Positions 1 through 18,032 of a DNA stretch of 64,000 nucleotides are shown here, piece after piece. Origin of the DNA: Escherichia coli O157:H7 (GTDB lineage Bacteria; Pseudomonadota; Gammaproteobacteria; Enterobacterales; Enterobacteriaceae); NCBI RefSeq assembly GCF_013167455.1, contig NZ_CP038328.1. One strand, given 5' to 3'. A model generated the notes under the pieces. The model was not told where the DNA came from and ran no database searches. It saw only the letters and a program-made list of their open reading frames with translations. The position numbers were made by a program, and so were the translations under genes. The first letter of the stretch is position 1. The number at the start of each line of letters is the position of its first letter.

Positions 1-794
1 CAGCGCGAAAGATAAGGTGCCAATCCTTCTTGTTCGAAGAGTTCCAGCGCCGCGCGTAATTCACGTATTAGCATGGCCGCCAACGTATTACGATCGAGAT
101 TGATCCCCGCTTCCTGCAGCGTGATCCACCCCTGATTAACGACACTCTCTTCAACACGACGCATTGCCATGTTGATCCCGGCTCCAATGACTATTTGCGC
201 CGCATCGCCGGTTTTGCCAGTCAGCTCCACAAGAATGCCTGCCAGCTTGCGATCCTGCAGATAGAGGTCATTAGGCCATTTGACACGAACTTTATCTGCT
301 CCCAGCTTGCGTAATACTTCCGCCATCACGATACCGATAACCAGACTTAAACCAATCGCCGCCGCCGGGCCTTGTTCCAGACGCCAGAACATCGACAAAT
401 ATAAGTTTGCGCCAAAAGGCGAAAACCATTTCCGACCCCGGCGACCACGGCCAGCCTGCTGGTATTCTGCAACGCAGGCATCGCCCGATTTAAGCTCTCC
501 GATACGATCAAGAAGGTACTGATTCGTGGAGTCAATCACTGGCAGCACAGTTACACTACCGCCATCCAGCTGACCCAATATCTGTTCAGCATTAAGTAAC
601 TGGATAGGCTCAGGCAGGCTGTATCCTTTACCCGGAACGGTAAAGACATCAACGCCCCAGTCACGCAGTGTCTGAATGTGTTTATTAATAGCCGCCCGGC
701 TCATTCCTAACGTTTCACCCAACTGCTCACCTGAGTGAAATTCGCCATTCGCTAACAGCGCGATTAATTTCAGTGGCACGGTGTTATCCTTCAT
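1..794 (-). CDS. birA: biotin-[acetyl-CoA-carboxylase] ligase / bio operon repressor BirA, N-terminal part (3' end beyond window start)
   Basis: Minus-strand frame from ATG at 794-792, overlapping the murB stop, translates [50 protein letters not shown], recognised as the BirA N-terminus; not in the ORF track because it runs off the window. Confidence 0.9.
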
Positions 795-1819
795 GAAATT
801 GTCTCCACTGCGCTCACTTCACCTGATGCACCAATAAAGCGGACTTCAGGCTCAAGCCAGACATTAAATTTTTCACCCACTTTTTGTCTTACATGGTGTG
901 CCAGTTGCACCACATCTTCGCTTTTTGCATTGTCTTCATTAATGAGAACTAACGCCTGTTGACGGTGCACCGCAACCCCACCCATTTGCATCCCTTTTAG
1001 CTGGCACTGATCGATAAGCCAACCTGCTGCCAGTTTTACTGAACCATCCGCCTGGGGGTAATTTGGTGCTGTTGGAAATTGTGACAGTAATGCTTTAGCC
1101 GTTTCGGCAGATACAACAGGGTTTTTGAAGAAACTACCGGCATTGCCATTCACTTTTGGATCAGGGAGTTTGGTGGTGCGCATATGACACACCGCATCAA
1201 ATACTTGCTGTGGCGTTACTGTTGTAGGATCCAGACGAGTTAAGTCACCATACGTTAGTACAGGTTGCCACTCTTTTGGCAGACGCAGACCTACGGCTAC
1301 AATGGCGAAGCGGTCCTGGTATTCATGTTTAAAAATACTGTCGCGATAGCCAAAACGGCACTCTTTGGCAGTTAAGCGCACTTGCTTGCCTGTCGCCAGT
1401 TCAACACAATCAACATAAGCGCAAACTCGCTGTAATTCTACGCCATAAGCACCAATATTCTGGATAGGTGATGAGCCGACACAACCAGGAATTAATGCCA
1501 GATTTTCCAGACCAGGCATACCTTCCTGCAAAGTGTATTTTACCAGGCGATGCCAGTTTTCTCCGGCTCCTACATGTAAATACCACGCATCAGGTTCATC
1601 ATGAATTTCGATACCTTTGATCCGGTTGATGATCACCGTGCCGCGATAGTCTTCCAGAAAAAGTACATTACTTCCTTCACCCAGAATAAGAACGGGTTGC
1701 CCTTCTGCGGTTGCATGCTGCCAGGCATTGAGTAGTTGTTGTTCGTCTTCGGCACATACAATGTGCTGAGCATTATGATCAATGCCAAATGTGTTCCAGG
1801 GTTTTAAGGAGTGGTTCAT
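791..1819 (-). CDS. murB: UDP-N-acetylenolpyruvoylglucosamine reductase
   Basis: 342-aa [33 protein letters not shown]; position between rrn operon and birA. Confidence 0.95.
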
Positions 1820-1912
1820 AGCTGCTTTCCTGATGCAAAAACGAGGCTAGTTTACCGTATCTGTGGGGGGATGGCTTGTAGTTATGACGACAGGGAGAGT
1901 TTGTAGAAACGC

Positions 1913-1939
1913 AAAAAGGCCCAGTCTTCCGACCGGGCC
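1913..1939 (-). terminator. rho-independent terminator downstream of 5S rRNA
   Basis: On the minus strand GGCCCGGTCGGAAGACTGGGCC hairpin followed by TTTTTGCG, immediately 3' of the 5S gene. Confidence 0.7.
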
Positions 1940-1953
1940 TTCTGCTTAATTTG

Positions 1954-2073
1954 ATGCCTGGCAGTTCCCTACTCTCGCATGGGGAGACCCCACACTACCA
2001 TCGGCGCTACGGCGTTTCACTTCTGAGTTCGGCATGGGGTCAGGTGGGACCACCGCGCTAAGGCCGCCAGGCA
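1954..2073 (-). rRNA. rrfB: 5S ribosomal RNA
   Basis: 120-nt reverse-complement match to E. coli 5S (TGCCTGGCGGCC...GGAACTGCCAGGCAT). Confidence 0.97.
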
Positions 2074-2165
2074 AATTCTGTTTTATCAGACCGCTTCTGC
2101 GTTCTGATTTAATCTGTATCAGGCCGAAAATCTTCTCTCATCCGCCAAAACACCTTCGGCGTTGT

Positions 2166-5070
<2,905 letters not shown>

Positions 5071-9989: not shown

Positions 9990-10229
9990 TGTAAAGCATC
10001 CACAATAGAAGAAGGATGCCGCAGGTTTCATCAATATTACGCGATGATGAGAACCAGATGCGACGTTGGCCGGCAGGTCTTCGGGCTTGGAGGGGTATCT
10101 AAGATACTAAGAGATGATGACTTCCCACCGAATGGCAGTGTCCGCATAACGCAATCATCGCACCTTTCCTTACCGCTGCGCGTCAGCTCCAGATTCGCAC
10201 TGGATTCCCTATTAACTCACAGGACCGGC
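9990..10229 (-). ncRNA. btuB leader containing cobalamin (adenosylcobalamin) riboswitch
   Basis: About 240-nt 5' leader, minus strand GCCGGTCCTGTGAGTTAATAGGGAATCCAGTGCGAATCTGGAGCTGACGCGCAGCGGTAAGGAAAGGTGCGATGATTGCG..., recognised as the btuB leader. Confidence 0.85.
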
Positions 10230-10357
10230 AAGTGGATGCTACAGGTTGTAACAAGTTACTGTCCAGACGTAGCTCACAAATAGGAATTCATCAAGATCTG
10301 GACATCTGATGAGCAATCCCTACAATCGCCGCGTACTTTAATTTTTCAGGATACATC

Positions 10358-11458
10358 ATGACCCCCGAACACCTTCCAACAGAACAGTATGAAGCGCAGT
10401 TAGCCGAAAAAGTGGTACGTTTGCAAAGTATGATGGCACCGTTTTCTGACCTGGTTCCGGAAGTGTTTCGCTCGCCGGTCAGTCATTACCGGATGCGTGC
10501 GGAGTTCCGCATCTGGCACGATGGCGATGACCTGTACCACATCATTTTCGATCAACAAACCAAAAGCCGTATCCGGGTGGATAGCTTCCCCGCCGCCAGT
10601 GAACTCATCAACCAGTTGATGACGGCGATGATTGCGGGTGTGCGTAATAATCCCGTTCTGCGCCACAAGTTGTTCCAGATTGATTACCTCACCACGCTGA
10701 GTAATCAGGCGGTGGTTTCCCTGCTGTACCATAAAAAGCTGGATGATGAGTGGCGTCAGGAAGCGGAAGCCCTGCGCGATGCACTGCGCGCGCAGAATCT
10801 GAATGTGCATCTGATTGGTCGGGCAACGAAAACCAAAATCGCGCTGGATCAAGATTACATCGACGAGCGTCTGCCGGTCGCAGGGAAAGAGATGATCTAT
10901 CGTCAGGTAGAAAACAGCTTTACCCAGCCGAACGCGGCGATGAATATTCAGATGCTGGAATGGGCGCTGGACGTAACCAAAGGCTCAAAAGGCGATTTAC
11001 TGGAGCTGTACTGCGGCAACGGTAACTTCTCATTAGCGCTGGCGCGCAATTTTGATCGGGTATTAGCCACCGAAATCGCCAAGCCATCAGTCGCTGCCGC
11101 GCAATACAACATTGCCGCTAACCATATTGATAACGTACAAATTATTCGTATGGCGGCAGAAGAATTTACTCAGGCGATGAATGGCGTGCGCGAGTTTAAC
11201 CGCCTGCAAGGGATCGACTTAAAGAGTTATCAGTGCGAAACCATTTTTGTCGACCCACCTCGCAGCGGTCTGGACAGTGAAACCGAGAAAATGGTGCAGG
11301 CGTATCCACGTATTCTGTATATCTCCTGCAATCCGGAAACGTTATGCAAAAATCTGGAAACATTAAGCCAGACGCACAAGGTCGAACGTCTGGCTCTGTT
11401 TGATCAGTTCCCCTACACGCACCATATGGAGTGCGGCGTATTACTGACCGCGAAGTAA
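10358..11458 (+). CDS. trmA: tRNA (uracil54-C5)-methyltransferase
   Basis: 366-aa [35 protein letters not shown]. Confidence 0.95.
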
Positions 11459-11463
11459 AACCC

Positions 11464-11489
11464 ATGCCGGATGCGCCAGCATCCGGCAT
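11464..11489. repeat. REP-like palindrome between convergent trmA and yijD
   Basis: ATGCCGGATGCGCCAGCATCCGGCAT perfect palindrome. Confidence 0.7.
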
Positions 11490-11497
11490 GATACCGA

Positions 11498-11857
11498 TTA
11501 CTCAGCAACTTCCTGCTTACGGTTACGCATCTTCGCGCCAATCCAGAACACCATAATGACGGAGAGTACTGCCGGGAAGAAGTTAGAGCCGATATCCGGA
11601 TATTCCGCACGAACTACCGTGCTGTACAGCAGTACGCCGAGAATAAAACAGGCAGCTGCCAGACCCGGCAAGCCTACCGGCATGGTGCGATTAAGATAAC
11701 GTTGATGCAGGCAGTAAACCGTCAGCACCAGGGAAATAATCGGGAATACAGAAAATGGCACAATGGAGCTAAACAGCGCTGCGAAAGTACCATTAATCGA
11801 TAAGCCAGCAACCAACGCCAGCAGCAGCGTACCTCTATCTTGATTTGCTTGTTTCAT
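11498..11857 (-). CDS. yijD: inner membrane protein YijD
   Basis: 119-aa hydrophobic [32 protein letters not shown]; synteny downstream of fabR. Confidence 0.9.
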
Positions 11858-12504
11858 TACTCGTCCTTCACATTTCCCGGAATAATTGCGGTTTTCTCTT
11901 GTTCACGGCGATACCAGTAATAAGCCCCTTTCGAAATCATTCGCAGTTGCAGTACCAGTCGCTCTTCTAATTGCCGACGTTGTTCAACGCCGACGTCCAA
12001 CGCCTCGGCACCCGCACTGAAGACAATTGTCACCATTGCTTCGGCTTGCGCTTCAGTAAACGCACGCGGCATATGGTTTTCGAGTTCCAGATAGTCCGCA
12101 AGTTCCGCAATGAAGTGCTGAATTTCACGCGCAACGGCGGCACGAAACGCAGCGGAGGTGCCGGAGCGTTCCCGCAATAATAACCGGAAGGCGTTAGGAT
12201 TATTACCGATGAACTCCATAAATGTGGAGACCGAGGTGCGGATCACACTCCCGCCTTTGGCGATACGCTGACGCGCCTGGCGCATGAGTTGGCGTAGCAT
12301 TAAACCGCTCTCATCAACCATGGTCAGACCCAGTTCGTCTACGTCTCGGAAATGCCGATAAAAAGAGGTGGGAGCAATGCCCGCTTCACGCGCCACTTCA
12401 CGCAAACTCAGGCTGGCGAAGCTGCGTTCAGCACTTAATTGGCTAAATGCGGCTTCCACCAGCGAACGGCGGGTTTTTTCTTTTTGTTGCGCTCTTACGC
12501 CCAT
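11857..12504 (-). CDS. fabR: TetR-family repressor of unsaturated fatty acid biosynthesis FabR
   Basis: ORF track 11857..12600; start placed at ATG 12504 ([20 protein letters not shown]), 215 aa. Confidence 0.9.
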
Positions 12505-12610
12505 CACGATGTCTGAATCCTTGCCAAAAGTACTGCTGGCACTATACCAGAGAATGAACATACTGGATTGCTCCAGTATTGTGAATGAACGGTAACGCAA
12601 TAAAACATAT

Positions 12611-13927
12611 TTACTGCAATTCTTTGGCCGGTTCTTTTACGTACAACAACGCCAACATCGACAGCAACGTGCCTCCACCCAGATACCACGCCGGAGCCGT
12701 CAAACTATCCAGCAACACGATGGATTGCGTAGCGAAATATTGAGCAAAACCGCCAAAGATTGCCACACCAATGCTATAAACCAGCGCAAAACCCAATGCC
12801 CGAATCCGTTTCGGCAACAGTTCAGAGATCAACAACATCACTGGCACACCGCCAAGCGTGGTAAAGCTGACCATCACGAAAACCACCGTCAGCAACATGC
12901 CTGGGCTTGGGTAATTCACCAACAGCCAGAATGACGGCCAGCTACAGATCAGCACCATCACACGGGAGATTAAAATCAGCTTTTTACGCCCGACCGAATC
13001 GCACAACATCCCCACCAGCAGCGCACCCACAAACGTAATAACGCCCGCCAGTAACATCGCTGCATGAGAATAGTTTTGGTTCATTCCTAAATACTTCGCC
13101 GCCCATGTACCGTAATAAAAGAGGGAGATATAGGTTGCGACTGTACTACCAATAGCGAGCAAGATACCGTTAGCGATAGTCGCTTTATGTTGCATAAGTA
13201 AGGAGAAGGCGCTTTCGCTGGCTGCGGCCTTCTTATTATGTGCTGGCTCAGGAACATCATTTTCCAGACTCAAACGCAACCAACAGCCGACAGGCGCTAA
13301 TAACACGCCAATAAAAAACGGCACACGCCAGCCCCATTCAGCCATGACGGTTTCTGAACCGGTCGCAAAGGGCAGCCATGCACTTAAACCTAAAGCGACA
13401 ACACCTCCAAAAGTTGTTGCCAGGCCTTGAGTCGCCAGTGACCAACTGCTGTAAAAACCGCGACGATTTGCCGGAGCTGATTCAACCAACAAAGACATTG
13501 AGGCACCGACTTCGCCTCCTGCCGCAACGCCCTGAATTAGACGCGCTAGCACCAGCGTCGCGGTTCCCCAATAGCCCGCCGTTTCATACGTCGGTGCGAT
13601 GCCGATCATCAGTGTACCAAGACTCATCAGCGCAATGGTGAACACCATCGCGGGTTTGCGTCCGAAACGATCGGCCCAGGCCCCCACAATAATGCCGCCG
13701 AGCGGGCGCATAAAAAAGCTCACGCCGAAAGTGGCAAACGCCAGCAGTAGCGCGACGTTTTTATCTGCACTGGGCGGAAAAAATAGCGTGCTGATATAGA
13801 CCACAAAAAAGTTGTAAACGCCAAAATCAAAAAATTCGAGCGCATTGCCAAACGCCGAGGCAAAAATCACCCGCCTGCCGCTGGGCTTTTTCTTCACACT
13901 CACGGTTTCATTTACGATCGCCGTCAT
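12611..13927 (-). CDS. MFS transporter, metabolite:H+ symporter (MHS)-like
   Basis: 438-aa ORF with multiple TM segments and a GWRVPFF motif as in ProP/KgtP-type MFS proteins; to my recollection absent from the K-12 fabR-sthA interval. Confidence 0.85.
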
Positions 13928-13969
13928 TCCATGTTCCTTGCCAAAAAGTGTTGTTGTGTGTTGTTTTAT

Positions 13970-15136
13970 TTATTGCAGCCAGGCTTCTACCAGTGCGCCC
14001 CAGTAGCTGCTTGCCGGGACCAGACTTGCATCGTTGAAGTCGTAACCCGGGTTATGCACCATGCAGGAACCTTCCCCGACATCGCCATTACCGAATAACA
14101 GGAAACCGCCTTTGGGTTGGGCTTCCAGCATGAAAGAGAAATCTTCACTGCCCATCAGGGGCTTGATGCCAAACTCGGCCCGATCTTCACCAAACGTTTT
14201 ACACGCCACCTGCCAGGCGAAGCGCGCCATCTCCTCGTCATTTACTAATACTGGTGTACCGTTAACATGCGTAACCTCAGCCGTAGCGCCAAAGCTGGCA
14301 GCCTGGGCTTGTGCCAGAGCAGGAATACGGGTCAGAAGAAGTTGTCGGGTATCGCGGCTAAGAGAGCGGACGCTGATTTTCATCTCAGCACTGTCAGGAA
14401 TGACGTTAGCCGCCTCACCCGCAACAATGCTGCCGACGGTAATTACCGCCGCTTCCAGCGGATCGACATTGCGTGACACAATGCTTTGTAATGCGGTGGT
14501 GATATGTGCGGCAACTAGCACCGGATCGATGGCTTTGTGCGGGATCGCACCGTGTCCGCCACAACCACGAACTGTAATATGGAACTGATCCATTGACGCC
14601 ATCAGTGCCCCTGGCTGGAAATAAAACTTACCCACCGGCAGACCGGGCATGTTATGCATGCCGAAAATGACATCGCAGGGGAAATGATCAAAAAGCCCCT
14701 CTTTAACCATGATCTCACCGCCATTAATCATCTCTTCCGCAGGCTGGAAGATAAGACGTAACGTGCCGTTAAAACGGCGGGTTTCGGCAAAATAACGCGC
14801 GGCCCCCAGCAGTATGGTGGTATGCCCGTCATGCCCGCAGGCGTGCATTAAACCAGGATGTTTACTGGCCCAGGGCTTGCCACTATTTTCATAAATCGGC
14901 AGCGCATCCATATCCGCCCGCAGGCCAATACTTTTCTCTCCGTCGCCCACTTTTAACGTGGCCACTATCCCCGTCGTCGCCAGTCCTTGCTCTACTTCAT
15001 AGCCCCACTGACGCAGCTTTTCCGCAACCAAAGCACTGGTTTTAAATTCTTGTAATCCCAGCTCCGGGTTTTCGTGGATCTGATGGCGGATCTCACGCAG
15101 TTCTTCCTCAAACCCTCGAATATAGTGTTCGATCAT
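13970..15136 (-). CDS. M20-family amidohydrolase (hippurate hydrolase / N-acyl-amino-acid amidohydrolase-like)
   Basis: 388-aa ORF with HACGHDGH metal-binding motif typical of peptidase M20D; directly upstream and co-oriented with the MFS gene. Confidence 0.85.
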   Translation of the reverse strand: MIEHYIRGFEEELREIRHQIHENPELGLQEFKTSALVAEKLRQWGYEVEQGLATTGIVATLKVGDGEKSIGLRADMDALPIYENSGKPWASKHPGLMHACGHDGHTTILLGAARYFAETRRFNGTLRLIFQPAEEMINGGEIMVKEGLFDHFPCDVIFGMHNMPGLPVGKFYFQPGALMASMDQFHITVRGCGGHGAIPHKAIDPVLVAAHITTALQSIVSRNVDPLEAAVITVGSIVAGEAANVIPDSAEMKISVRSLSRDTRQLLLTRIPALAQAQAASFGATAEVTHVNGTPVLVNDEEMARFAWQVACKTFGEDRAEFGIKPLMGSEDFSFMLEAQPKGGFLLFGNGDVGEGSCMVHNPGYDFNDASLVPASSYWGALVEAWLQ

Positions 15137-15465
15137 CGGCTATTCCTTTATTCACTTATAAACAGGCTAATTAACGGATTTTATTGATGGTGTAAATACA
15201 AATAACTCATCAATATAAAATATTTATATGTTTGTTTTATAAGAAGATTTCACAAAGACAATAACAAAAAAGCACGCTTCGGCAAGATAAAACTATCAGC
15301 CATAATAAAAAGCGATTAATAGTGAATAAATGGGTTAAGAAGGAGGCAGACAAAGCAAAGGCCGCTCACGCTATAGCCAGATTAATGACGGGGATCAATT
15401 GGCTTACCCGCGATAAAATGTTACCATTCTGTTGCTTTTATGTATAAGAACAGGTAAGCCCTACC

Positions 15466-16866
15466 ATGCCACATTCCTACGATTACGATGCCATAGTAAT
15501 AGGTTCCGGCCCCGGCGGCGAAGGCGCTGCAATGGGCCTGGTTAAGCAAGGTGCGCGCGTCGCAGTTATCGAGCGTTATCAAAATGTTGGCGGCGGTTGC
15601 ACCCACTGGGGCACCATCCCGTCGAAAGCTCTCCGTCACGCCGTCAGCCGCATTATAGAATTCAATCAAAACCCACTATACAGCGACCATTCCCGACTGC
15701 TCCGCTCTTCTTTTGCCGATATCCTTAACCATGCCGATAACGTGATTAATCAACAAACGCGCATGCGTCAGGGATTTTACGAACGTAATCACTGTGAAAT
15801 ATTGCAGGGGAACGCTCGCTTTGTTGACGAGCATACGTTGGCGCTGGATTGCCCGGACGGCAGCGTTGAAACACTAACCGCTGAAAAATTTGTTATTGCC
15901 TGCGGCTCTCGTCCATATCATCCAACAGATGTTGATTTCACCCATCCACGCATTTACGACAGCGACTCAATTCTCAGCATGCACCACGAACCGCGCCATG
16001 TACTTATCTATGGTGCTGGAGTGATCGGCTGTGAATATGCGTCGATCTTCCGCGGTATGGATGTAAAAGTGGATCTGATCAACACCCGCGATCGCCTGCT
16101 GGCATTTCTCGATCAAGAGATGTCAGATTCTCTCTCCTATCACTTCTGGAACAGTGGCGTAGTGATTCGTCACAACGAAGAGTACGAGAAGATCGAAGGC
16201 TGTGACGACGGTGTGATCATGCATCTGAAGTCGGGTAAAAAACTGAAAGCTGACTGCCTGCTCTATGCCAACGGTCGTACCGGTAATACCGATTCGCTGG
16301 CGTTACAGAACATTGGGCTGGAAACTGACAGTCGCGGACAGCTGAAGGTCAACAGCATGTATCAGACCGCACAGCCGCACGTTTACGCGGTGGGCGACGT
16401 GATTGGTTATCCGAGCCTGGCATCAGCGGCCTATGACCAGGGGCGCATTGCCGCGCAGGCGCTGGTAAAAGGCGAAGCCACCGCGCATCTGATTGAAGAT
16501 ATCCCTACCGGCATTTACACCATCCCGGAAATCAGCTCTGTGGGCAAAACCGAACAGCAGCTGACCGCGATGAAAGTGCCATATGAAGTGGGCCGCGCCC
16601 AGTTCAAACATCTGGCACGTGCACAAATCGTCGGCATGAACGTGGGCACGCTGAAAATTTTGTTCCATCGGGAAACAAAAGAGATTCTGGGCATTCACTG
16701 CTTTGGCGAGCGCGCTGCCGAAATTATTCATATCGGTCAGGCGATTATGGAACAGAAAGGTGGCGGCAACACTATTGAGTACTTCGTCAACACCACCTTT
16801 AACTACCCGACGATGGCGGAAGCCTATCGGGTAGCTGCGTTAAACGGTTTAAACCGCCTGTTTTAA
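15466..16866 (+). CDS. sthA: soluble pyridine nucleotide transhydrogenase
   Basis: 466-aa [28 protein letters not shown] with FAD/NAD GxGxxG motifs. Confidence 0.95.
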
Positions 16867-17766
16867 CACTTTATCGAAATGGCCATCCATTCTTGCGCGG
16901 ATGGCCTCTGCCAGCTGCTCATAGCGGCTGCGCAGCGGTGAGCCAGGACGATAAACCAGGCCAATAGTGCGGCGTGGTTCCGGCTTAATGCACGGCAGAT
17001 AAACAACCCCATCGCGTTTGCGCTCCGGCGGCACAGCCAGCGCTGGCAGTAAAGTGATCCCGCTACCTGCCGCCACCATGTTGCGCAGCGTCTCCAGGCT
17101 GGTCGCGCGGAAGTGTGTATCTTCATCCGCCCCGGCTTCAAAGCAAAAACCCATTGCCTGATCGCGCAAACAGTGACCATCTTCCAGCATCAGCAGTTTT
17201 TCCCCTGCCAGATCGGCCATCGGTACGCATTCGCGGTTCGCCCACGGGTGGTCTTCATAGATAGCCAGCAACATTGGCTCATCAAACAACGGCACTTCAA
17301 TGAATGCTTCGCTCTCTTTCACCAGCGCGAGGATCACGCAATCGAGTTTGCCGCTGTCCAGTTGCGCCAGTAACTGGTGGGTCTGTGCTTCATGCAGATA
17401 CATTTCCAGCTTTGGAAAGGTCTGGTGCAGCATCGGGATAATATGCGGTAGCAGGTACGGTCCAACCGTGGGAATCAAACCAATATGCAGCGGTCCGGAC
17501 ATCGTCTCGCCCTGCTGGCTTGCCATCTCTTTAAGGACTTTCACCTCACGCAGCACGGTACGCGCCTGATCCACCAGCAGCATTCCCGCCTGGGTGAACA
17601 ACACTTTACGGCTGGTCCGCTCCAGCAACATCACGCCCAGCTCATCTTCCAGCTTACGAATTTGCCCGCTAAGCGTCGGCTGGCTAACGTGGCAGGAATC
17701 TGCCGCACGCCGAAAATGGCGGTGTTCAGCCAATGCCACCAGGTACTCAAGATCACGAATATTCAT
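16849..17766 (-). CDS. oxyR: LysR-family oxidative stress regulator OxyR
   Basis: ORF track 16849..17796; start placed at ATG 17766 ([23 protein letters not shown]), 305 aa; 3' end overlaps sthA convergently. Confidence 0.95.
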
Positions 17767-17861
17767 TATCCATCCTCCATCGCCACGATAGTTCATGGCG
17801 ATAGGTAGAATAGCAATGAACGATTATCCCTATCAAGCATTCTGACTGATAATTGCTCACA

Positions 17862-17975
17862 GAAACGGAGCGGCACCTCTTTTAACCCTTGAAGTCACTG
17901 CCCGTTTCGAGAGTTTCTCAACTCGAATAACTAAAGCCAACGTGAACTTTTGCGGATCTCCAGGATCCGCTTTTT
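17862..17975 (+). ncRNA. oxyS: OxyS small regulatory RNA
   Basis: GAAACGGAGCGGCACCTCTTTTAACCCTTGAAGTCACTGCCCGTTTCGAGAGTTTCTCAACTCGAATAACTAAAGCCAACGTGAACTTTTGCGGATCTCCAGGATCCGCTTTTTTTT, divergent from oxyR and ending in a hairpin plus T-run. Confidence 0.9.
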
Positions 17976-18032
17976 TTTGCCATAAAAAAGCCCGGCGATA
18001 AGCCAGGCTCAAATTTGTACATATAAATGTTC

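Follow-up and report, generated by a model that had tools for sequence, protein, structure and literature searches.

A transporter and M20D amidohydrolase gene pair between fabR and sthA of Escherichia coli O157:H7 is probably ancestral to the genus and has been deleted in K-12-type strains

Between fabR and sthA the O157:H7 chromosome carries two genes, for an MFS transporter and for a metallo-amidohydrolase of the M20D subfamily, whose place is taken in K-12-type strains by a deletion scar. Judging from sequence comparison, the pair goes back to the ancestor of the genus Escherichia, having entered that lineage after the split from Salmonella, an entry point that the original prediction, made from the letters of this DNA, had missed. 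We regard as likely the account as a whole, in which an accessory importer and amidohydrolase operon of Escherichia ancestry was lost through the K-12-type deletion while fabR has a promoter of its own. The window is the whole stretch of 64,000 nucleotides that was analysed, and all positions below refer to it. The features are as follows.

11498-11857, minus strand: yijD (ORF and annotation); the fabR-yijD operon spans 11498..12507
11857-12507, minus strand: fabR, with a GTG start according to PGAP; forms with yijD a co-oriented operon downstream of the pair
12508..12610, minus strand: transporter-fabR spacer of 103 bp with candidate fabR promoters (promoter and terminator scan, fold)
12591..12645: left-hand remnant in K-12, made up of 35 nt from the end of the transporter ORF (stop 12611-12613) and 20 nt of 3′ flank
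12611..13927, minus strand: second of the two genes, encoding the MFS transporter of 438 aa (ORF; CFT073 c4925, Sakai ECs4893)
12646..15346: segment of 2701 bp absent from K-12-type genomes, which have 73-74 bp of filler in its place (blastn boundaries)
13928..13969, minus strand: 42-nt intergenic spacer of the pair, with an AAGGAA ribosome-binding site
13970..15136, minus strand: first of the two genes, encoding the cytoplasmic M20D metallo-amidohydrolase (aminoacylase/carboxypeptidase) of 388 aa (ORF; CFT073 c4924 and, by numbering, Sakai ECs4892)
15137..15346: AT-rich upstream/regulatory region of the pair, 28.6% GC over 210 bp, absent from K-12
15215..15243, minus strand: AT-rich motif tied to TosR-responding genes, about 78-79 nt before the start codon of the M20 gene
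15347..15465: sthA-proximal part of the spacer, also present in K-12 (blastn boundaries, alignments)
15466..16866, plus strand: sthA, the divergent neighbour (ORF and annotation)

The two open reading frames lie exactly where an amidohydrolase and an MHS-type transporter had been placed from the sequence, between fabR and sthA on the fabR strand, and the same two CDSs stand in the RefSeq annotation of identical O157:H7 genomes. The pair is already catalogued in the literature under the CFT073 and Sakai tags given above, which the original prediction had overlooked; the tags were reached from the anchors CFT073 oxyR = c4922 and Sakai argH = ECs4889. An AAGGAA ribosome-binding site precedes the ATG by 6-7 nt in the M20 gene and the transporter gene alike. 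Since the 42-nt spacer holds such a site and the scan found no terminator-like site in it, co-transcription of the pair is implied. The GC content of the two genes (51.5% and 53.5%) and their GC3 (0.56-0.57) are near the values of the neighbours, with 52.7% GC in the window, and the host-like composition first judged by eye is thus borne out by calculation.

How did the K-12 arrangement arise? In MG1655, fabR and sthA are divergent and separated by a 330-bp spacer without the pair, in agreement with the gene order of the original prediction. Positions 12508-12645 and 15347-15465 are common to O157 and K-12, which leaves 12646-15346 as the O157-specific part. About 70 bp next to sthA, presumably its promoter or leader, are also conserved in Salmonella, and the adjoining 15347-15396 (about 50 bp) are Escherichia-specific and kept by K-12. 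In the one Salmonella genome compared, the sthA-fabR spacer is 198 bp long and has neither the pair nor either of the K-12 remnants. K-12-type genomes thus hold residual gene fragments at the junction which are missing from an outgroup that itself lacks the pair, and this identifies the K-12 allele as a deletion scar. An apparent likeness between the Salmonella spacer and the edge of the island was rejected, as it reflects homology to the shared sthA-proximal segment.

Among 5426 complete E. coli genomes the pair is present in 1505 and the same scar in 3918 (about 72%). Scar-bearing strains have one junction in common, and the filler evolves fast (8 differences in 73 positions). Empty alleles were not monophyletic on flank trees, which include few taxa and carry no bootstrap support. 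A search for the origin of the filler gave as its best match 26 of 36 nt to positions 14760-14795 inside the M20 gene, a level reached by 1 of 300 shuffles; neither other island alleles nor other filler variants bettered it. Aligned by mafft with the AT-rich upstream region, the filler did not rise above shuffled sequence (305 of 1000).

The pair occupies the same site in E. albertii, in a cryptic-clade Escherichia and in a genome labelled E. fergusonii, and its divergence among Escherichia resembles that of the flanking genes: against E. albertii, dS is 0.31 for the M20 gene and 0.67 for the transporter gene, with 0.28-0.56 in the flanking genes. Purifying selection is evident from dN/dS values of 0.02-0.07 (M20) and 0.03-0.04 (transporter). 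Features of a mobile island were not found: the segment holds only two ORFs, with no boundary repeats, integrase or tRNA, Rfam gave no match inside it, and no plasmid copy of the pair was found. The scar, the shared site in Escherichia other than E. coli and this lack of mobile-element features strongly support the suggestion that the pair is ancestral and that K-12 has lost it.

Outside the genus, the nearest relatives of both genes among the matches listed are in Burkholderiales, at 41-63% identity. The protein homologue search returned near-identical E. coli sequences only, with no relatives of intermediate identity. Among the matches listed, the nearest M20 proteins outside Escherichia come from Silvimonas (63%) and then from Burkholderiales and Pseudomonas (50-58%), while the nearest transporters are from Burkholderiales, at 41-46% identity, or 36-46% with Pseudomonas loci included; the same matches include no other Enterobacteriaceae with relatives of the pair, which is only suggestive. 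In at least nine of these non-Escherichia loci an MHS-type transporter adjoins the M20 gene, and a divergent LysR regulator was confirmed by Pfam in all four that were scanned. These uncharacterised Burkholderiales and Pseudomonas cassettes share with the Escherichia pair its order and orientation, enzyme and then transporter. However, where they have the divergent LysR gene, Escherichia has the divergent sthA and an AT-rich non-coding stretch upstream. Judging from these likenesses, a relative of Burkholderiales probably served as the donor.

The family of the enzyme is clear. It matches Peptidase_M20 (PF01546, 150 bits) and M20_dimer (PF07687, 48.7 bits) in Pfam, and it scores 358.9 bits against TIGR01891 'amidohydrolases', far over the cutoff of 153.75, which places it in M20D. 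It aligned over its full length to B. subtilis YxeP (1YSJ), Arabidopsis ILL2 (1XMB) and CsAga, the N-acyl-glutamine aminoacylase of Corynebacterium striatum (6SLF), with E values of 1e-64 to 1e-71, and the Cys/His/Glu/His metal-ligand motifs MHACGHDGH, QPAEE, GMHNMP and the C-terminal vHnPgY are conserved relative to these three. Homology to the solved M20D structures is therefore unambiguous at the sequence level, and the two-domain architecture is common to them, to C. jejuni HipO and to the O157 enzyme. Unlike these enzymes, that of O157 is encoded by a gene which, as its spacer indicates, is co-transcribed with an MFS importer. It is about equidistant from all solved M20D enzymes, whose substrates differ among themselves, and no equivalog model was reached at its cutoff (CpsA, 335 bits against 500; DoeB2, 322 against 550). 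The profile search gave no match to a HipO-specific model. An OngB-type GlcNAc1A deacetylase function was considered and rejected, since that enzyme belongs to another superfamily (TIM-barrel amidohydrolase).

The transporter has the MFS fold by its matches to Sugar_tr (PF00083, E 1.5e-33) and MFS_1 (PF07690, E 1.5e-28), with domains of the 12-TM type. Its best-scoring models are those of the metabolite:H+ symporter (MHS) family (TC 2.A.1.6: CitA, TcuC, KgtP, ProP, ShiA). TIGR00883, the best match (E 5e-97), nevertheless missed the MHS subfamily cutoff with 325.5 bits against 443.45, and TcuC gave 285 bits against 445. By these profiles the protein is a divergent relative of the MHS family. 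As it falls below the cutoffs of every subfamily and equivalog model, the name 'citrate-proton symporter' is unsupported.

A functional parallel is the AbgA/AbgB-AbgT system of E. coli K-12 for the utilisation of p-aminobenzoyl-glutamate, which works on the same principle: an anionic N-acyl amino acid is imported and then hydrolysed in the cytoplasm by an M20-family enzyme. Its transporter is of the AbgT family, whereas that of the O157 pair is an MFS protein. The Abg system has a LysR regulator, AbgR, and the O157 locus differs in lacking one. Homology of the O157 enzyme to the Abg-family structure 3IO1 can be detected, but at 126 bits as against 221-244 for the M20D group. The label COG1473 'AbgB' is attached to c4924 in the conserved-domain column of PMC2831201. 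Family membership makes an anionic N-acyl-L-amino acid, or else a dipeptide, the likely compound that the pair imports and hydrolyses. The earlier guess of N-acyl amino acid uptake and hydrolysis accordingly fits the two families, while its mention of hippurate specifically finds no support.

Upstream of the M20 gene, the AT-rich stretch noticed in the sequence is real, its GC content being little more than half that of the window. It is 94-97% identical to E. albertii, B2 and cryptic-clade sequences, and the spacer between the M20 gene and sthA is 329 bp in all of them. A study of CFT073 (PMC5956150, Table S2) described a motif enriched upstream of TosR-responding genes and gave position 78 for its occurrence at c4924; the window differs from this motif by one mismatch. 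On tosR overexpression in CFT073, c4924 rose by 6.6 log2. ECs4893 has been listed with +2.09 among genes changing at the growth-phase transition in glucose minimal medium. The AT content, together with one overexpression experiment in another strain, suggests that the pair may be silenced by H-NS-like proteins.

On the fabR side, the 103-bp spacer does not differ between O157 and K-12, and it is also conserved in B2 and cryptic-clade sequences. The promoter scan gave two candidates in it, an extended -10 TGGTATAGT at 12549-12541 and TTCACA-17-TATGTT at 12585-12557, and the fabR-proximal 85 bp or so, including the former, are conserved in Salmonella. Neither scan nor folding found a canonical terminator in the spacer, which holds small hairpins, one of them decent and not conserved in E. 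albertii. A promoter for fabR within 12505-12610 had been offered as one of two options, and the conservation of the spacer supports it indirectly: transcription of fabR most likely starts from a promoter of its own there. The other option, read-through from the pair, could also play a part, given that no canonical terminator was found.

Could the pair instead be a recent horizontal island of the O157:H7 lineage, with the K-12 arrangement ancestral? Its absence from K-12 and 72% of E. coli and from the one Salmonella genome, as well as the betaproteobacterial origin of the nearest relatives outside the genus among the matches listed, would suit such a history. K-12, however, keeps the 3′ end of the transporter gene and Escherichia-specific DNA on both sides, E. 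albertii and further Escherichia have the pair at this site with flank-like divergence, and its composition is that of the host with no sign of mobility, so we find a recent gain extremely unlikely. Nor do we expect read-through from the pair to be the main driver of fabR-yijD, by which the island would rewire the control of unsaturated fatty-acid synthesis. The shared orientation of all four genes, the lack of a canonical intrinsic terminator in the spacer and the absence of its one decent hairpin from the conserved features in E. albertii speak for it, but K-12 has the identical spacer with no upstream operon, the core with the extended -10 reaches back to Salmonella, and the pair is apparently poorly expressed in culture, with about 100-fold headroom for induction in CFT073; we judge this role improbable.

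The remaining alternatives concern the substrate. A role of the pair in the use of citrate or tricarballylate is suggested by the PGAP product name, by TcuC and the MHS subfamily being the top-scoring transporter models, and by the label 'citrate metabolism' given to c4924-c4926 in PMC2831201. Yet both models stay far under their cutoffs, no plasmid-encoded homologue of the transporter exceeds 46% identity, the best being unnamed Burkholderiales MFS proteins, and citrate import has no need of a co-transcribed amidohydrolase, a pairing of enzyme and transporter that nevertheless recurs in distant bacteria and so speaks against a citrate role. This reading is very unlikely. We also doubt strongly that the enzyme is a hippurate hydrolase, orthologous to HipO, through which hippurate in urine or in the gut of herbivores would become available to B2 and E strains. 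Several records carry the legacy names 'hippuricase' or 'hippurate hydrolase', HipO too is a member of M20D (PMC11511702), and the lineages that carry the pair include uropathogenic B2 and bovine-associated O157. The names, however, are inherited from family-level similarity with no match at equivalog level, among the papers searched none links E. coli with the hydrolysis of hippurate, and, as a weak point, the nearest models of the transporter carry di- or tricarboxylates while hippurate is a monocarboxylate. The 'hippuricase' and 'citrate' labels of the pair are hence both unsupported. A carboxy-dipeptidase, for example one specific for Met-X, would make the pair a salvage system for peptides rather than N-acyl amino acids. 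Met-X dipeptidases also belong to M20D (PMC11511702), and that paper cites the M20D enzymes of Burkholderia cepacia and Deinococcus and HmrA of S. aureus as reported Met-X carboxydipeptidases. The CpsA carboxypeptidase model, which points the same way, was not reached at its cutoff, and the closest solved relatives are hydrolases of N-acyl amino acids. No MHS-type MFS transporter is known to carry peptides. A peptide role seems to us unlikely.

Under the preferred account of an Escherichia-ancestral operon, an ancestor of Escherichia would have received the cassette in its fabR-sthA spacer once its lineage had parted from Salmonella, probably from a Burkholderiales-related donor; the divergent LysR regulator of the donor type is absent in Escherichia. 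The cassette would then have been inherited vertically under purifying selection. A single later internal deletion of 2.7 kb would have left as its scar the 35-nt end of the transporter ORF, the 3′ flank and the filler of 73-74 bp, and this allele would now stand on several different flank backgrounds, that of K-12 included. The MFS protein, as a proton symporter, may take up a small anionic amide, with an N-acyl-L-amino acid as the likeliest candidate and a dipeptide as a possible one, and its cleavage by the cytoplasmic two-metal M20D enzyme would release the amino acid in free form together with a carboxylic acid. Transcription of the pair would start from its own conserved AT-rich region, which is apparently inactive in laboratory culture and which could be de-repressed by proteins with affinity for AT-rich DNA. 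For fabR-yijD, the 103-bp spacer common to both alleles would continue to supply a separate promoter.

A more far-reaching reading is that the presence or absence of the pair is an ancient polymorphism kept by selection. The silenced module would give B2, E and S. dysenteriae access to an N-acyl amino acid from host or diet, and induced read-through would couple nutrient sensing to membrane-lipid regulation via fabR-yijD. Behind it stand the occurrence of one deletion allele on several flank backgrounds and the deeply divergent, mosaic transporter alleles; we give this reading little credence.

The analysis corrects the direction of the difference between K-12 and O157: it is a loss in K-12-type strains and not a gain by the pathogen. 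Part of the region upstream of fabR in K-12 is left over from a transporter gene, as a fossil of its 3′ end, and two database names, 'citrate-proton symporter' and 'hippuricase', can be flagged as misleading. The pair is one among many uncharacterised lineage-specific metabolic cassettes, and its importance is modest. If its substrate were a host-derived N-acyl amino acid, the pair would bear on the niches of B2 and E pathogens as against those of A and B1 commensals.

The interval between fabR and sthA of E. coli O157:H7 was originally predicted to hold an amidohydrolase gene and a transporter gene on the fabR strand, and every detail of this was borne out by the ORFs and their annotation:

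11857-12507, minus strand, fabR ORF
12611-13927, minus strand (as fabR), transporter ORF, 438 aa, RefSeq name "citrate-proton symporter"
13970-15136, minus strand (as fabR), enzyme ORF, 388 aa, RefSeq name "M20 aminoacylase family protein"
15466-16866, plus strand, sthA ORF

The region is 100% identical to E. coli O157:H7 genomes. The enzyme and transporter genes are separated by 42 bp, and the ribosome-binding site AAGGAA precedes each ORF. GC and GC3 of the pair equal those of neighbouring genes, matching the host-like composition expected of it, and the supposed AT-rich promoter-like DNA upstream of the enzyme has 28.6% GC over 15137-15346. The gene order given for K-12 was also right: in MG1655 fabR and sthA are divergent neighbours spaced by 330 bp, and the pair is missing.

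By blastn, the K-12 locus is homologous to the window over 10901-12645 and 15347-17100, and the segment missing from K-12 is 12646-15346 (2701 bp). Of the transporter ORF, K-12 keeps the final 35 nt with the stop codon, and a 73-bp filler follows. In Salmonella enterica (one genome), sthA and fabR are 198 bp apart without the pair, and this spacer is homologous to that of E. coli only in about 85 bp beside fabR and about 70 bp beside sthA. Consequently, Escherichia-only DNA flanks the K-12 junction on the left (12591-12645) and on the right (15347-15396), and in O157 both pieces are continuous with the island. Remnants of this kind on both sides are what would be expected after an internal deletion in an ancestor that bore the island. 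The suspicion that ancestral DNA was lost from K-12 is upheld by these remnants and by the pair's presence at the same place in non-coli Escherichia.

The filler (73-74 bp; 1747-1819 of the K-12 locus L001, between window positions 12645 and 15347) gave no convincing match to any source; the best was 26/36 nt to the enzyme-internal 14760-14795, a score reached by 1 of 300 shuffles. It changes far faster than the spacer beside it: two empty strains differ at 8 of its 73 bp and at about 2 positions in the other ~257 bp. Unlike the adjoining filler, the 55-bp island remnant 12591-12645 is nearly invariant among empty alleles (one change), and it may have been co-opted into the fabR upstream region.

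The order oxyR-sthA-[M20-MFS]-fabR-yijD-trmA was found in three non-coli genomes: E. albertii NBRC 107761, one cryptic-clade Escherichia and one deposited as E. fergusonii. When O157 is compared with E. albertii, the enzyme gene has a dS of 0.31 and the transporter gene one of 0.67, with 0.28-0.56 for flanking genes, and dN/dS of both genes stays at 0.02-0.07 in all comparisons. This pattern indicates that both genes are functional and were inherited vertically from before the E. coli/E. albertii split.

The transporter gene is mosaic. A segment of about 300 bp in O157 (13050-13350) is only ~80% identical to three other E. coli alleles, that of B2 among them, and 96-98% identical to the locus deposited as E. 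fergusonii (L083). O157 and B2 differ overall by a dS of 0.46 in the transporter and 0.05-0.12 in the flanks, with dN/dS still ~0.03. In strain 23CRST027 the flanks and the enzyme gene are close to those of O157 (dS 0.005-0.04), and the transporter dS is 0.36. The flanks of L083 are 96-98% identical, making either its E. fergusonii label or the history of the region doubtful. Its yijD (L083 9281-9640, CP095843.1) shares 86% identity with that of E. coli, against 96-97% for the adjoining fabR and trmA, and looks like a local recombination import.

Across 5426 complete E. coli genomes the full pair was detected in 1505 and the K-12-type junction in 3918, which makes this in essence a two-allele locus. 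Empty strains whose flanking genes diverge from K-12 about as far as B2 share the scar and filler of K-12, and neighbour-joining trees of either flank (few taxa, without support values) mix empty alleles among pair-bearing ones. Together these observations suggest that the deletion allele is old and arose once; it would have spread between lineages by recombination or been retained as a polymorphism.

In the supplement of PMC2831201, the CFT073 enzyme and transporter genes, c4924 and c4925, score as present in four B2 strains, both O157:H7 strains and S. dysenteriae Sd197, and absent from O42 and every A and B1 strain tested. Table 2 of that paper gives c4924-c4926 as absent in both O157:H7 strains, contradicting its own Supplementary Table 2; our sequence data side with the supplement. 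The c4924-c4926 set includes a core gene, c4926, which is yijC (fabR).

The pair was thought to leave fabR dependent either on a nearby promoter or on read-through. The 103-bp transporter-fabR spacer is identical in K-12 and O157 and contains:

transporter-fabR spacer, promoter-like element TTCACA-17-TATGTT, from a sequence scan
12549-12541, extended -10 TGGTATAGT, conserved in Salmonella

Given this identity and these elements, fabR most likely has its own promoter within the spacer in both allele types. None of the hairpins there has a U-tract, and in E. albertii the best of them is disrupted; read-through into fabR is possible when the pair is expressed.

The enzyme-sthA spacer is 329 bp in five Escherichia lineages, and its island-specific 210 bp are 94-97% conserved, far above neutral sites of adjacent genes. 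The RNA-family scan gave no match inside the island. In CFT073, c4924 rose by 6.6 log2 on overproduction of TosR, a regulator binding AT-rich DNA, and an AT-rich motif is listed 78 nt upstream of it (PMC5956150); this motif maps to 15215-15243 with one mismatch. The Sakai transporter gene ECs4893 (tag assigned by numbering, argH being ECs4889 and murI ECs4898) is at +2.09 among genes changing at the growth-phase transition in glucose minimal medium (PMC2241611). It is reasonable to infer that the pair's promoter may be silenced and open to de-repression.

The enzyme passes TIGR01891 (359 bits, cutoff 154). Its alignments to YxeP, ILL2 and the C. striatum N-acyl-glutamine aminoacylase span the full length, with the metal-ligand motifs conserved. 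N-acetylcysteine, in keeping with the role of YxeP, is among M20D substrates. Others characterised are IAA-amino acids, N-acyl-glutamines, hippurate and Met-X dipeptides (PMC11511702). Since M20D substrates vary and the enzyme reached no equivalog cutoff, its substrate is assignable only to a putative class: the guess of an N-acyl amino acid or hippurate-like compound fits the families, and hippurate in particular is unsupported. Inspection of the sequence revealed no signal peptide, so the substrate must be imported. The logic of the pair is like that of AbgAB-AbgT of K-12. The transporter belongs to the MFS, and its top models, MHS subfamily and TcuC, score below their cutoffs; there is no support for naming it after citrate, or for "citrate metabolism" as in PMC2831201.

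No boundary repeats, integrase, IS or tRNA were found at the island, and a PLSDB search gave no plasmid copy of the pair. Two matches tallied as plasmid-borne hold the chromosomal fabR-pair-sthA locus; NZ_CP170379.1 (294 kb), probably one of them, is likely to be a chromosome assembly that was mislabelled or is fragmented, and not a mobile copy. Among the matches listed (one genome per species), the closest enzyme outside Escherichia is from Silvimonas (63% identity), followed by Burkholderiales, Pseudomonas and Rhizobiales (46-58%). At least nine such loci have an MHS-type MFS gene (36-45% identity) immediately after the enzyme gene, and divergent LysR regulators were Pfam-confirmed at all four non-Escherichia cassettes scanned. 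The best plasmid or chromid homologues of the transporter are from Burkholderiales (41-46%). Within the matches listed, this is suggestive of Burkholderiales-type relatives as the closest outside Escherichia. The cassette probably arrived on the Escherichia stem as one unit, minus its regulator, its composition having since ameliorated toward the host.

A second presence/absence polymorphism lies nearby in the oxyR-argH interval (17797-18032), where O157 and K-12 hold only oxyS. At 555-3119 of the cryptic-clade locus L086, argH and oxyR are separated by an enolase-superfamily (MR_MLE) gene and one for an MFS transporter. Three E. coli loci, ATCC 25922 among them (L088, L089, L090), have an MFS gene just past oxyR, at the edge of the examined region. 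The RNA features expected in the window were detected:

10055-10244, minus strand, btuB cobalamin riboswitch, 87 bits
17862-17971, plus strand, OxyS sRNA, 139.5 bits

The pair, itself uncharacterised, belongs to two well-known families and is already known from RefSeq annotation, published lists of K-12-absent and UPEC-associated genes, and transcriptome tables, and nothing here is surprising to a specialist. New are the deletion scar, and hence the polarity of the change, the biallelic counts over complete genomes, the over-specific database names pointed out, and the history of the cassette at the level of the genus.
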